Source: Promethearchaeota archaeon (lineage in GTDB: Archaea > Asgardarchaeota > Lokiarchaeia > Sigyniarchaeales > SOKP01). From it: a stretch of 32,000 nt of DNA. The stretch covers positions 510,001-542,000 of the forward strand of contig JAUWGH010000001.1 in NCBI GenBank assembly GCA_030606485.1, given 5' to 3'. A program made the position numbers. Shown piece after piece: positions 6,001 through 9,000 of the stretch. Positions within the stretch are counted from its first letter, which is position 1, and each line of letters begins with the position of its first letter.

Positions 6001-9000
6001 ATCTAAAACTCTTTCATTTTTATTTAGTTCCATTAAGACTTTCCCTGGTAATCTAGTTGAATCCATCCTAGCTTGAACAATTACTCCAATCTTTTGATTT
6101 TTTTGCCCTAGCAATTTATATTCTTAATTTTTTAGAAAAGGATTAATTATAATTTAATAATTTTTATTATTGCTCTTTTCTTGTTCTAATTTTTTTAATG
6201 CGATTTTATCTACCTTTCTGGAAATATTTTTTGGAAGGGAACTCATAATTTCTATTTCCTTCGGAACTTTATGTGGTGGAAAATGCTGTTGACAATAAGC
6301 AATGAGATCTTTCTCAGTAAGATCTGAGTTTTTAACAATGGAAACAAATGCCTTGATAGCTTCACCAAGTAATTCATCGTATATTCCAATAACTGCAACC
6401 TCAACAACATTTTGATTTTTAGAAATATAATTTTCGATTTCTTTTGAACTTACACGATGCCCTCCTACTTTTATAATTTCTTTTGCTCGATCTGTTAGAA
6501 AAATATATCCATCTTCGTCAACTATACCAAGATCACCCGTATATAATTTATTATCTTTCAAGACTTTAGCGGTTTCTTCAGGATCTTGCCAATAGCCAAC
6601 CATAATATTTCCTCCAGAGGCGACTATTTCTCCGACTTCTCCAGATTTAACAGGTTCTCCATTTTTATTTAAAACTTCAAGCTTTGTACCTGGGATCCCC
6701 TTTCCGATAGATCCTAATTTTGAATCAAGTAATTCAGGAGGTAAAAACGAAAGTCTCGCTGTTGCTTCAGTTTGACCATACATAATGAAAATTATTGTAG
6801 TATTTAATACTTCTTTTAATTCACTTATTAAGGTGTTTGGAAGTTTTCCACCTGCTTGTTGCACCAAACGAAGTGTTGGAAATTTCATTTTCTTCAAGGG
6901 TGATCTTCTTAATAATATCGAATAAATGCTAGGGACCCCAGCAAAAACTGTACACTTTTTTTGATTAATTTCCTTCAAAACTTTACCTGGAAACATAAAT
7001 TGATTATTAATAACTACTTGCCCTCCAACTCGTAGATGTGTATGTAATAAGGAAGTTCCAAAACAGTAAGAAAAGGGAAGAACGACCATTACTCTATCTG
7101 ATGACTTTAATCCAAGATATTTATTAATTGAATTAGTATTATACATTAAATTATAATGGGTTAACATAACTCCTTTAGGTATTCCTGTAGATCCCGAAGT
7201 AAAAATAATTACACCAAGATCTGTTTTTTCATCAACTTCCTTGATAATTGCATCTCTTTTATTAATCTTAAATATATTTTTAGTTCCTTCTATATCTATG
7301 TCGGAAAAAACTATTTTCAAGGGGATACCATAACTATATATTCTTTTCAAATATTTTTTCTGAATAAAAAAGCAACAAACCTTACAACTTTGACAAACAT
7401 ATTCAAAATTTTCCTTACCGAAATCTGGATGTAGAGGAACAACTACTCGACCACTACCAATTATTGCAAAATATGAGACAACGAAAAAAAATGAGTTATC
7501 AGCGATTATTATTATTTTTTCTTGAGGATTTAATTTTAAAGCATCTAATTCTCCTATTATTTTTAAAATAAGGAAGTAAAGTTCAGAATAAGAAATTGTT
7601 TTGTCTCTATAAAAAATTGCTATTTTTTCATTCTGATTTGTTGAATTCTCAAAAATATATTGTATAAAATTCATAAATTAACTCTGTACTTTTTTAAAAT
7701 AGTTTTGATCGAACCAAATGTATCCATTTCAGTAATGTCTTCCACATCGATTTTAATATTAAAGTATTTTTCTAAACGGTCAATAAGTTTTAAGTGAGTA
7801 ATTGAATTCCAATTCTCAATATCATCTGGATTTGTATCATCTGATATGAGGTCTTGTTCAATTTTAAAAATTTCCCTCAAAATAGTAATAAAATCTTCAT
7901 ATTGCCCCATAATTATTATAAAACTATTAAAAATATTTATAATTTTTTTAAAAGTAAAAATTTTTTACCTTATCACAAATGGATATTAGATAGAGATTAA
8001 ATTATTTTAATTGAAAAAGTATTTTATCTCCAAAAAGGCATAATTATCTTCTAAAGATTTTAAAAATTTTTAATAAAATAAAACAATAATAAATAAGAAT
8101 AATAGAAAAAAATATTGAGAGATTTGTTAGGATTAAATGTTTTCTAAAAATTTTCCATTTTTTTCACTCGAAAATAAAATTAAATCAATTAATTATTATG
8201 ATTGTCAGTTTAATTTCTATCATCTTGAAATAAATCAAGAAAATATATTATTTGGACAATGCTTTAAAAACGTAAATTCTGATAATCAAAAAATAATATC
8301 AGAAAAAATGCTGAAACATATGTCGTTTTGGGCTAAAGAAGAATTAGACGAGATGAAAACCATGAAAAATAAAAAGCAATTTTCTCGTCTTTATGAGTGG
8401 ATTCTTACGAAAATTCTAGTAAAATTTGGAACATCATTATATTTGAGAAAGTATTATACTCAATTAGATATATCTTCTGATCAAATAACAATAATAAAAG
8501 ATAAATGGAATAGACCATCAATTAAATTCATTCTAAACAATGATATAATTAAATTAGATCTTATTCCATTCATATCTATCTCCCATACAAAATATGAAGT
8601 TTATATTTCCCTGTGTTCAAAACCCATTGGGATCGATAATGAATTATTAGCTTTTCATTCAAAATCTTGGGAAAGAAAGATTTTTAATAGAAAAGAATCA
8701 GAAAAAATCATAAATTATTTGAAAAAATGGAATATTTTTTCAAAAGATCTTATCTATACGATCATGTGGTCACTTAAAGAATCAACAATAAAGGTTGAAG
8801 GTACTATTCCTTTAGGATTATTGTCAAAAGTTTCTATTGATATAATGAATGATAATATAATAACTAAAATTCCCCAAAAAAATAGATCATACAAAAATTT
8901 CATTTCATTAACAAAAGATTCTATCTTAATTCTAACAATTTAATTATTTTTTATTTTTCAAGATTTTGATAGAAAATTTTAGGATTAGAAATTGTTCCAG

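Follow-up and report, generated by a model that had tools for sequence, protein, structure and literature searches.

A putative cut-down acyl carrier protein/ligase cassette within a nonulosonic-acid gene island of an Asgard archaeon

Acyl carrier proteins (ACPs) and 4'-phosphopantetheinyl transferases (PPTases) are rare in archaea, and the literature searched contained nothing relevant on Asgard archaea or Lokiarchaeota in connection with either protein. The stretch of 32,000 bp analyzed here (termed the window) raises the question of what an ACP, an adenylating ligase and a PPTase might do amid genes for sugars of the nonulosonic-acid type. A preliminary description of the locus had left open whether the host is archaeal; the taxonomy check identified it as a Loki-type Asgard archaeon, whose genome is 100% complete and has a G+C content of 28%. 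Within this genome, the ACP is the sole match to the PP-binding domain and the PPTase the sole PPTase match, consistent with the suggestion that the three genes form a self-contained set; a complete genome thus has its sole carrier and its sole PPTase linked to sugar genes, not to lipid synthesis. Among 61 genomes sampled from the same order, only 10 contain a PP-binding domain, and only five such domains are located in a small stand-alone ORF. As noted before, the window is devoid of ketosynthase, condensation and MBOAT domains (30 ORFs scanned). Genome-wide, MBOAT (PF03062; the DltB partner) gave no match, and ketosynthase (PF00109) gave only thiolase-like matches of 40–55 residues, none of them in the window. 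A role as ACP of a type II fatty-acid synthase was rejected, since the genome lacks a ketosynthase of the fatty-acid synthase type.

All three ORFs are intact, and the boundaries initially assigned to them proved exact. On the minus strand, a stand-alone ACP of 79 aa (7671..7910; PF00550, 29.1 bits versus a cut-off of 20.8) precedes an ANL adenylating ligase of 506 aa (6154..7674; AMP-binding, 242 bits, and AMP-binding_C, 65 bits). The plus strand reads tcat at positions 7671–7674, corresponding to ATGA on the minus strand, and therefore the TGA stop codon of the ACP gene overlaps the ATG of the ligase gene; by this overlap, the ligase is coupled in translation to the ACP. A divergently oriented Sfp-type PPTase of 268 aa (8137..8943, plus strand) was recognized by a weak ACPS match combined with the residues and profile of its orthologues. 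The AT-rich intergenic region of 226 bp between the ACP and PPTase genes (7911..8136), evident from reading the sequence, presumably harbors the promoters of both sides. A sigma-70 promoter/terminator scan of positions 4500–9300, the model of which does not extend to archaeal promoters, returned 42 sites, as compared to 34.5 +/- 5.4 in shuffled sequences.

The ACP keeps the conserved core of its family. Its serine occupies an invariant column of the family motif W-x-S-x-x-H (here NWNSITH), the family-invariant residues W34, S36 and E47 and the near-invariant H39 are retained, and departures are confined to two columns (D35N and G76R). At variable positions, it is the most diverged of the Asgard ACPs, with a mean identity of 43% versus 52–58%, which would fit an altered set of partner enzymes. 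Taken as a single sequence, the PPTase does not reach the Pfam cut-off for ACPS (21.3 versus 25). It retains all nine residues that are invariant among its Asgard orthologues, located in SISHT, GIDxE and WSxKEsxxK motifs and including S147, H150, G165, D167, E169, W211, E215 and K219; judged by the (I/V)SxSH, GxDxE and WxxKE(A/S)xxK motifs of two-domain PPTases, it belongs to the Sfp type. A profile of the orthologues matched AcpS, Sfp and human AASDHPPT with E values of 7e-9 to 5e-8, the first half matching AcpS and the second half Sfp and AASDHPPT.

In the phylogenetic tree, the ligase is nested in an Asgard clade of nine members (SH-aLRT 95; 95–99 for its nesting), with the proteins of Promethearchaeum syntrophicum MK-D1 and Lokiarchaeum ossiferum as sister group (SH-aLRT 96). 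It is thus orthologous to the ligases of complete Asgard cassettes, to which it shows 54–66% identity (66% to that of strain MK-D1). Its terminal branch of 0.28 equals the tree median, and its departures from conserved columns (four of 112) are in the normal range of its relatives (one to five). The best NCBIfam match was a generic fatty-acid-CoA ligase model, with a score below the cut-off. An amino acid-adenylating domain of the NRPS type was rejected, because Cys replaces the Asp which binds the alpha-amino group in core A4 of NRPS A domains (FSYC aligned to FSFD of LgrA), and because the score for TIGR01733 was 205.6 versus a cut-off of 317.4. Assignment to the exosortase A-associated ligases (TIGR03098) was also discarded (338.8 bits versus a cut-off of 592.35). 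A plasmid protein search yielded generic “class I adenylate-forming enzyme” matches of at most 36% identity, the one useful match being a locus of Paludibaculum.

The trio appears to be a reduced form of the carrier-protein acyl cassettes of glycan loci, as typified by WbeK/WbeL of Vibrio cholerae O1. The wbe/rfb K-L-M-N(-O) “tetronate” genes of the latter comprise VC0248–VC0252 (Morona et al. 1995, Gene 166:19, pmid 8529890, via PMC12208996); RfbL (VC0249) is proposed to transfer 2,4-dihydroxybutanoate onto CoA or a carrier for N-acylation of perosamine. In V. cholerae O1 as in the window, a carrier protein (RfbK) is followed by an ANL ligase (RfbL) in a surface-glycan locus, a likeness drawn from the published gene content and gene order; in the window, the stand-alone Ser carrier is located directly upstream of the ligase, to which it is coupled. 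The Asgard orthologues share the wbeK-L-M-N order, i.e., ACP, ligase, Fe-ADH (WbeM) and LuxE/LuxC (WbeN). In the eight complete Asgard cassettes compared (P. syntrophicum MK-D1, L. ossiferum, Sigyn-, Thor- and Helarchaeota), the orthologous ligase, an ACP of the W-x-S-x-x-H type and the orthologous PPTase with the nine common invariant residues are present as in the window, and are accompanied by genes for a MaoC dehydratase, Fe-ADH, LuxE and LuxC as well as for a hexapeptide transferase or an alpha/beta hydrolase. Flagellin glycosylation islands of Aeromonas group II and of Enterobacteriaceae contain genes for an ACP, an AMP-dependent synthetase, LuxE and LuxC (PMC7874193, PMC4875605). Their carrier and ligase genes lie, similar to those of the window, among pseudaminic-acid genes, and Aeromonas group I islands share with it an aldo/keto reductase and a class III aminotransferase; the Aeromonas and Enterobacteriaceae islands are bacterial, however, and unlike the window include LuxE, LuxC and FabG. 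Cassettes of the WbeK/WbeL type shape many flagellin glycans as well as the O1 antigen of cholera, but their chemistry was not established in the literature searched.

The trio had been put forward as a candidate for a new system. It turned out to be a reduced derivative of a widespread ACP-ligase-(Fe-ADH)-LuxE-LuxC cassette, and its new aspect is the reduction itself: LuxE and LuxC are lost genome-wide, a hexapeptide acyltransferase is missing from the window, and the ACP-ligase pair is joined to a nonulosonic-acid operon. (Fe-ADH)-LuxE-LuxC lies downstream of the ligase in each of the eight other members of the Asgard ligase clade and in 42 of the 44 related loci that share this ACP type. 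In the window, neither Fe-ADH nor LuxE nor LuxC follows the ligase, and the latter two are absent throughout the 100% complete genome. Unlike in the complete Asgard cassettes, the slot of Fe-ADH/LuxE is occupied by a CTP_transf_3 cytidylyltransferase (257 aa; 5341..6114, minus strand; PF02348, 98 bits), which begins 39 nt downstream of the ligase, and this junction contains no remnants of lost genes. A Hexapep acyltransferase resembling RfbO, a hexapeptide-type acetyltransferase, is not encoded within the window, the nearest being located at 560.8 kb of the contig, approximately 19 kb past the window end. The window thus differs from the V. cholerae O1 locus by the lack of Fe-ADH, LuxE, LuxC and hexapeptide-transferase genes and by its additional dedicated PPTase, archaeal host and neighbors of the nonulosonic-acid type. 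Judged from these comparisons, the lineage has lost the reductive branch (LuxE/LuxC/Fe-ADH) as well as the MaoC and hexapeptide-transferase genes.

All Asgard-type metagenome contigs checked that provide about 6 kb of downstream sequence carry Fe-ADH-LuxE-LuxC, while in shorter contigs the gene row runs off the end. The metagenome scan detected no relative closer than 67% identity and no second reduced layout. Among the eight Asgard genome loci and the metagenome contigs, no other lineage with the reduced layout was found, which counts against a function of the trio in glycan acylation. ACP-ligase pairs without LuxE/LuxC do occur in bacterial EPS loci (that of Paludibaculum plus 29 others, the ACP being of a different subtype), indicating that a minimal pair is a workable layout. 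These exosortase/EPS pairs (TIGR03098-like; Paludibaculum fermentans pPfer1) consist of just an ACP and a ligase gene that overlap by 4 nt, and the pPfer1 pair adjoins genes for acyltransferases, a flippase and a sugar dehydrogenase; their ACP, however, has an IDSL motif, and their ligase belongs to a branch of the tree other than that of the window ligase.

The surroundings of the trio bear out the nonulosonic-acid context originally described. The window encodes two NeuB and three CTP_transf_3 proteins, a KpsS-like protein and a UGDH, and it is closely preceded by genes for a PseB-like dehydratase, another SDR, an aminotransferase of the DegT type and a GNAT protein of 157 aa. With GT1/GT2, PseB-like and DegT genes in its flanks, the trio is embedded in an island of sugar genes of more than 60 kb, which is strain-specific, and thereby lies in a surface-glycan locus as is typical of WbeK/WbeL-type cassettes. 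Genes for an aldo/keto reductase, CTP_transf_3, a class III aminotransferase and NeuB (422..4582, minus strand; Pfam matches) likely make the acceptor sugar. An association of such cassettes with neuB/spsF was not borne out by the co-occurrence check: tblastn of the window sugar genes against 80 related loci placed NeuB near the cassette in only one. The searches gave few matches, as the archaeal queries are too diverged, and a Pfam tally of neighbor genes was therefore used instead; the association is with glycan loci in general. Asgard relatives adjoin GT4, DUF354, DegT, epimerase and hexapeptide-transferase genes, and bacterial relatives are located in O-antigen, flagellin-glycan and EPS loci. 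Since the relatives reside in glycan loci, carrier-dependent tailoring of a glycan by acylation, as proposed at the outset, is the best reading.

We thus consider it somewhat probable (roughly 0.55) that the trio still loads a small acid other than an amino acid onto the ACP for N-acylation of a glycan. The Sfp-type PPTase would convert the ACP to its holo form, whereupon the ligase would adenylate a small carboxylic acid without alpha-amino group and thioesterify it to the ACP. An acyltransferase, for which the neighboring GNAT protein is the best-placed candidate, would then move the acyl group to the amino group of a nonulosonic-acid-type sugar supplied by the surrounding genes. As LuxE, LuxC and Fe-ADH are lost, the acid would be used as loaded, and reduction of a second carboxyl group to the alcohol would not take place. 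The acid, the acceptor, the transferase and the continued use of the cassette are what we infer here. Glycerate or lactate furnished by a 2-hydroxyacid dehydrogenase, as envisaged earlier, was dropped as unsupported, since the intact dehydrogenase gene is found at a distance of 10 kb, where it forms a pair with the second NeuB gene, and the copy closer to the trio encodes only a fragment of 103 aa adjoining an IS element. Lacking the reductive branch, the three-gene version would offer the simplest setting for studying how an acid is loaded on a carrier and how the acyl group reaches an amino sugar.

The arrangement is found in several populations in nature. Positions 4500–9200 are covered by a contig of 8,095 bp that stems from an independent study of marine sediment and shows 26 substitutions and no indel, which rules out an artefact of assembly. 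The stretch is present in 20 metagenome runs from 10 studies, one possibly being the source of the window DNA, with cold-seep and sediment studies among those that contain this strain. The public runs listed for it included no RNA run. Neither indels nor stop codons were observed across the four runs compared. Polymorphism of the ligase among populations amounted to 10 nonsynonymous and three synonymous changes, the resulting pN/pS of 0.89 being based on only 13 SNPs; this ratio hints at relaxed constraint and as such counts against a function in glycan acylation. The ratio of 10:3 did not differ significantly from that of 8:5 in neighboring genes (Fisher p = 0.67).

Such a ratio could mean that the trio is a still intact remnant, which lacks a downstream pathway and drifts into decay because its genes for MaoC, Fe-ADH, LuxE, LuxC and the hexapeptide transferase fell victim to a deletion or rearrangement in this mosaic island with its IS element. 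We regard this as the less probable account, albeit one to be taken seriously: every sampled relative of the clade possesses the full gene row; some populations have changes at the otherwise Asgard-invariant ligase positions P341, P365 and S409, and the window itself at N184; no other Asgard ACP evolves as fast as that of the window; a ligase orthologue was not found in the same-genus or same-family genomes searched; and the island carries a split UGDH copy in addition to the IS element and the truncated dehydrogenase gene, while LuxE and LuxC are wholly missing from the genome. Arguments against decay are, however, the three open ORFs in a genome of such low G+C content, where stops arise easily, the retention of all catalytic and family-invariant residues, the average branch length of the ligase, the absence of indels from four independent populations, and the tight, fragment-free junction to the next gene; moreover, the SNP excess is not significant, and minimal ACP-ligase pairs function as a layout elsewhere. 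Even if the trio were only a remnant, it would illustrate the break-up of cassettes inside fast-changing glycan islands.

Glycan acylation as the target of a working cassette may also be questioned. Transferase and acceptor are postulated, the link to NeuB is not conserved, and the generic NCBIfam model best matching the ligase belongs to fatty-acid-CoA ligases, so that acylation might instead be directed at a lipid, at a protein or at some small secondary metabolite, the position in the island being incidental. The glycan-type neighbors of the Asgard and bacterial relatives and the sugar-gene island around the trio itself make this improbable. Still more improbable is a Dlt-like aminoacylation, in which the ligase would charge the carrier with D-alanine or another amino acid, which would then be esterified to a surface polymer. 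A small carrier with a stand-alone ligase does resemble DltC/DltA, and the top PDB match of the ligase is an NRPS adenylation domain (E value of 9e-56), but this match is no better than that to an acyl-CoA synthetase (2.6e-55), and the Cys at the alpha-amino-binding position, the low TIGR01733 score, the lack of MBOAT (DltB) in the genome and the partnership of the orthologues with LuxE/LuxC/Fe-ADH, which act on carboxylic acids, all argue against it.

For N-acylation of a nonulosonic-acid-type sugar, the transferase named in the preliminary description was the GNAT protein (190 aa; 4747..5319, plus strand; Acetyltransf_3, 64.8 bits), which may indeed be an acyl-ACP:amino-sugar N-acyltransferase, albeit as a weakly supported candidate. 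The predicted GNAT-ACP complex scored 0.57, as compared to 0.00 for the best control; of 80 solved complexes, 58 attained the mark that it passed, as did two of 110 mismatched pairs, and passes scoring 0.60 or under comprise only seven of the 80 solved complexes plus both mismatches. Runs agreed in at least 97% of contacts, with partner pLDDT values of at least 88. Set against this, the Asgard relatives of the cassette have hexapeptide acyltransferases instead of a GNAT; relatives of the GNAT are distant (at most 38% identity), and the best one occurs in an AKR-GNAT-cytidylyltransferase row on a 4.3-kb contig without a match to ACP or ligase. More speculative, and rather unlikely as a whole, is a scheme in which the only carrier system of this archaeon has been rewired into a minimal donor for nonulosonic acid, with the GNAT taking the acyl group from acyl-ACP, and the class III aminotransferase and aldo/keto reductase contributing either an extra amino group on the sugar or a hydroxy acid, made by a route that takes the place of LuxE/LuxC/Fe-ADH. 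If true, it would represent carrier-dependent N-acylation of a sialic-acid-like sugar by a GNAT in Archaea, not by the usual hexapeptide transferase.

Atlas look-ups of two further, unannotated window ORFs indicated no acyltransferase, giving instead a weak methyltransferase lead for the ORF at 17019–17936 and a GT-B glycosyltransferase lead for that at 20698–21873.

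Pfam recognized the 79-aa acyl carrier protein (ACP; 7671–7910, minus strand) as a PP-binding protein with 29.1 bits at a cut-off of 20.8, and alignment with its relatives placed its serine within a family-invariant W-x-S-x-x-H motif. The 506-aa ligase (6154–7674, minus strand) contains both ANL domains according to Pfam; inspection by eye located the core motifs TSGSTGIPKG, YGQTE and YTGD as well as the lysine of the last core. Because the minus-strand bases 7671–7674 read ATGA, the ACP stop codon overlaps the ligase start codon. The phosphopantetheinyl transferase (PPTase; 8137–8943, plus strand, 268 aa), which is divergently oriented across 226 bp, scored 21.3 for ACPS as a single sequence, below the cut-off of 25. 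It keeps all nine residues that are invariant among its Asgard orthologues, with the motifs SISHT, GIDxE and WSxKEsxxK, and a profile of these orthologues aligns to AcpS over its first half and to Sfp and human AASDHPPT over its second half (E values of 7e-9 to 5e-8); judged by its sequence, the protein is a two-domain Sfp-type PPTase. The preliminary description of the three open reading frames, with an intact serine motif, an ATGA-coupled ligase and a divergent Sfp-type PPTase, was thus correct, and their boundaries are exact. The same holds for its statement that the window lacks ketosynthase, condensation domain and MBOAT genes, as Pfam found none among the 30 window ORFs. In the whole genome (3.75 Mb, rated 100% complete), profile searches likewise detected no MBOAT protein, a ketosynthase search returned thiolase-like matches only, and the ACP and the PPTase are each the sole member of their kind.

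The best relatives of the ligase are all from Asgard archaea, namely Promethearchaeum syntrophicum MK-D1 (66% identity) and Lokiarchaeum ossiferum (62%), besides Sigynarchaeum, Thorarchaeota and Helarchaeota, confirming the archaeal host that had initially been put as a condition. When 80 genome loci around ligase relatives were set against the window, the window's type of ACP was found directly upstream of the ligase in 44 of them, followed by LuxE in 42 of these 44 and by LuxC in nearly all; a second ACP subtype, of the Paludibaculum kind, occurs in 29 further loci. All eight Asgard loci show the order ACP, ligase, iron alcohol dehydrogenase (Fe-ADH), LuxE, LuxC, usually preceded immediately by genes for a MaoC dehydratase, a hexapeptide acyltransferase or both; a PPTase and either an alpha/beta hydrolase or a hexapeptide transferase are encoded nearby. 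GT4, DUF354, DegT and epimerase genes adjoin these cassettes, which are therefore part of glycan loci. Asgard-type metagenome contigs that continue for about 6 kb downstream from the ligase (L135, L139, L140, L145) also contain Fe-ADH, LuxE and LuxC, and two shorter ones (L134, L136) contain the first genes of this row before the contig ends.

The Asgard row has the same gene order as Vibrio cholerae O1, that is, carrier, ligase, iron alcohol dehydrogenase and acyl-CoA reductase/acyl-protein synthetase. RfbO of V. cholerae O1 is a hexapeptide-type acetyltransferase. A pathway for V. cholerae O1 was reportedly proposed by Morona et al. in 1995. RfbK is the carrier and RfbL/VC0249 the ligase of this organism (PMC12208996), while WbeM/VC0250 is the iron alcohol dehydrogenase and WbeN/VC0251 the acyl-CoA reductase/acyl-protein synthetase (PMC9915646). 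Flagellin glycosylation islands of Aeromonas and Enterobacteriaceae harbor genes for an ACP, an AMP-dependent synthetase, LuxE and LuxC between pse genes (PMC7874193, PMC4875605).

Of this cassette, ACP, ligase and PPTase are all that the window retains. LuxE and LuxC had no match anywhere in the 100%-complete genome; Fe-ADH, MaoC and hexapeptide transferase were absent from the Pfam scan of the window ORFs, and Fe-ADH, LuxE and LuxC of MK-D1, used as tblastn queries, retrieved nothing from the window. The nearest hexapeptide protein is encoded about 19 kb beyond the window's end. Where the relatives have Fe-ADH, a cytidylyltransferase gene follows 39 nt after the ligase, and no fragments of the lost genes are left at this junction. 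In the ligase tree, the window protein falls inside the Asgard clade (SH-aLRT 95) as sister to MK-D1 and L. ossiferum (96). The simplest reading of these sequence data is that a full ancestral cassette would have suffered secondary loss of its reductive branch. Rather than being the new system that had been suspected, the trio derives, in reduced form, from the widespread ACP–ligase–Fe-ADH–LuxE–LuxC cassette; this parent is known, and has not yet been worked out biochemically in the literature consulted. The reduced form was seen in a single lineage only and may still be active.

Cassette loss might instead have left the trio as a drifting remnant without a pathway. The reduced layout was indeed found in no second lineage among the 80 genome loci and in the metagenome scan, and the ACP is the most diverged of the Asgard ACPs (mean identity of 43% vs 52–58%), a fast evolution that may reflect drift or, alternatively, the disappearance of four docking partners. 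Population SNPs in the ligase comprise 10 nonsynonymous and 3 synonymous changes (pN/pS 0.89), with P341L, P365T and S409G of other populations affecting otherwise invariant sites; at residue 184, the window ligase has N, and 46 of 62 relatives have I. However, the difference from the neighboring genes (8:5, pN/pS 0.37) is not significant (Fisher p = 0.67), and the divergence of the ligase is average (mean identity 59%), with an end branch of 0.28 at the tree median and departures at 4 of the 112 columns with a conservation of 90% or more, as compared to 1–5 in its relatives. Only 2 conserved columns differ in the ACP, the PPTase has lost none of its invariant residues, and all three frames are open despite a G+C content of 28%. 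Moreover, 20 metagenome runs contain the stretch 5341–8943; they belong to 10 studies of cold seeps, marine sediments and the subsurface, and the window DNA itself may derive from one of them. None of the four runs compared shows an indel, and an 8,095-bp contig from a separate study covers 4500–9200 with 26 substitutions. ACP–ligase pairs without LuxE/LuxC are also common in bacterial EPS loci, such as that of Paludibaculum, in which the pair is accompanied by acyltransferases, a flippase and an exosortase gene. We consider a remnant the less likely reading.

That full cassettes encode LuxE in addition to the ligase points to a dicarboxylic acid as substrate: one carboxyl group would stay attached to the ACP, and LuxE, LuxC and Fe-ADH would reduce the other. 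With the positions conserved among its orthologues retained, the window ligase may still activate this acid, now left unreduced; alternatively, its substrate may be a ready-made hydroxy acid. In NRPS A domains, the Asp of the FSFD motif binds the alpha-amino group of the substrate; the ligase has FSYC aligned to FSFD of the gramicidin synthetase A domain and thus lacks this Asp. Its matches to solved structures include oxalate-, malonyl- and 4-hydroxybutyrate-CoA ligases along with many other acyl-CoA ligases, and are not diagnostic.

Within the window and 18 kb on each side, Pfam detected acyltransferase domains in two GNATs only, several ORFs being without any match. The 190-aa GNAT (4747–5319, plus strand) is convergent with the cytidylyltransferase gene that follows the ligase. 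A predicted complex of this GNAT with the ACP scored 0.57 (best of three controls, 0.00), with a contact agreement between runs of at least 97% and a partner pLDDT of at least 88. Of 80 solved complexes, 58 reach the score mark, as against 2 of 110 mismatched pairs; scores of up to 0.60 comprise just 7 of the 80 solved complexes and both passing mismatches, and a pass of this kind is expected to be false in most cases where the pairing was not already probable a priori. The closest relative of the GNAT (38% identity) is encoded on a 4.3-kb Zixibacteria contig (L118) in the row DegT, aldo/keto reductase (AKR), GNAT, CTP_transf_3, with no ACP or ligase detected on the contig; hence, the GNAT may itself be an enzyme of the sugar pathway. 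The carrier-dependent N-acylation proposed initially is supported in part: the trio is best read as serving carrier-dependent tailoring of glycans in an archaeon, the prediction lends weak support to the GNAT as acyl-ACP transferase, and the supply of glycerate or lactate by a 2-hydroxyacid dehydrogenase is unsupported. The AKR, GNAT and CTP_transf_3 genes of the window (3641–6114) recur in the Zixibacteria row (L118 30–2900), suggesting that DegT–AKR–GNAT–CTP_transf_3 is an uncharacterised sugar-tailoring unit independent of an ACP.

The window sits within a sugar-gene island of more than 60 kb. Upstream, the island encodes GT1 and GT2 glycosyltransferases, a PseB-like dehydratase, a second SDR, a DegT aminotransferase and a 157-aa GNAT, which may be a PseH equivalent; this GNAT follows a 254-aa ORF (positions 651–1415 of the upstream flank L117, minus strand) that starts 6 nt past a NeuB stop codon and extends beyond the window start. 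Inside the window are genes for two NeuB and three CTP_transf_3 proteins, a class III aminotransferase, an aldo/keto reductase, a KpsS-like protein, methyltransferases and CBS–UDP-sugar dehydrogenases, and downstream are further glycosyltransferase and FkbM methyltransferase genes. Apart from an IS element (11354–13175), the 32-kb window has no DNA match in three same-genus genomes; it is therefore a strain-specific glycan island. The ligase orthologue (at least 60% identity) is missing from all three; among 61 sampled genomes of the order, it occurs in only four others, all of other families, and the 11 same-family matches are paralogues of about 30% identity. PP-binding domains are rare in this sample (10 of 61 genomes), and small stand-alone ones were found only in the window's genome (G000), G022, G032, G004 and G036. 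Giant ORFs of 2,141–3,819 aa with up to four PP-binding domains each, in the Lokiarchaeia relatives G056, G011, G031, G005 and G001 of the same order, look like NRPS/PKS-like megasynthases.

Copies of the IS element in two same-genus genomes are 96–97% identical; its transposase is divided between overlapping ORFs, one for the Zn-ribbon/ISL3 N-terminal part (11468–12043) and one for the DDE ISL3 part (12034–12696). Adjoining it, a 103-aa C-terminal fragment of a D-2-hydroxyacid dehydrogenase (10925–11236, minus strand), 40% identical to the intact gene at 18760–19704, is probably a truncated pseudogene. The CBS-pair/UDP-sugar dehydrogenase fusion occurs twice (21875–23605 and 29799–31197, both minus strand), as one intact copy of 576 aa and one split into overlapping ORFs of 333 and 149 aa, whose N-terminal part is 70% identical to the intact copy. 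A B12-binding radical SAM enzyme of 475 aa (28325–29752, plus strand) might C-methylate a sugar or an acyl group, and a RiboL-PSP-type HEPN protein (25236–25946, minus strand), located among unannotated ORFs of 177, 415 and 440 aa, may be a defence or toxin module. Two products without Pfam match are those of 17019–17936 (minus strand), a weak methyltransferase lead (atlas score 0.88 vs the 0.9 mark), and of 20698–21873 (plus strand), which resembles a GT-B (GT28/PseG-like) glycosyltransferase (atlas score 0.98).
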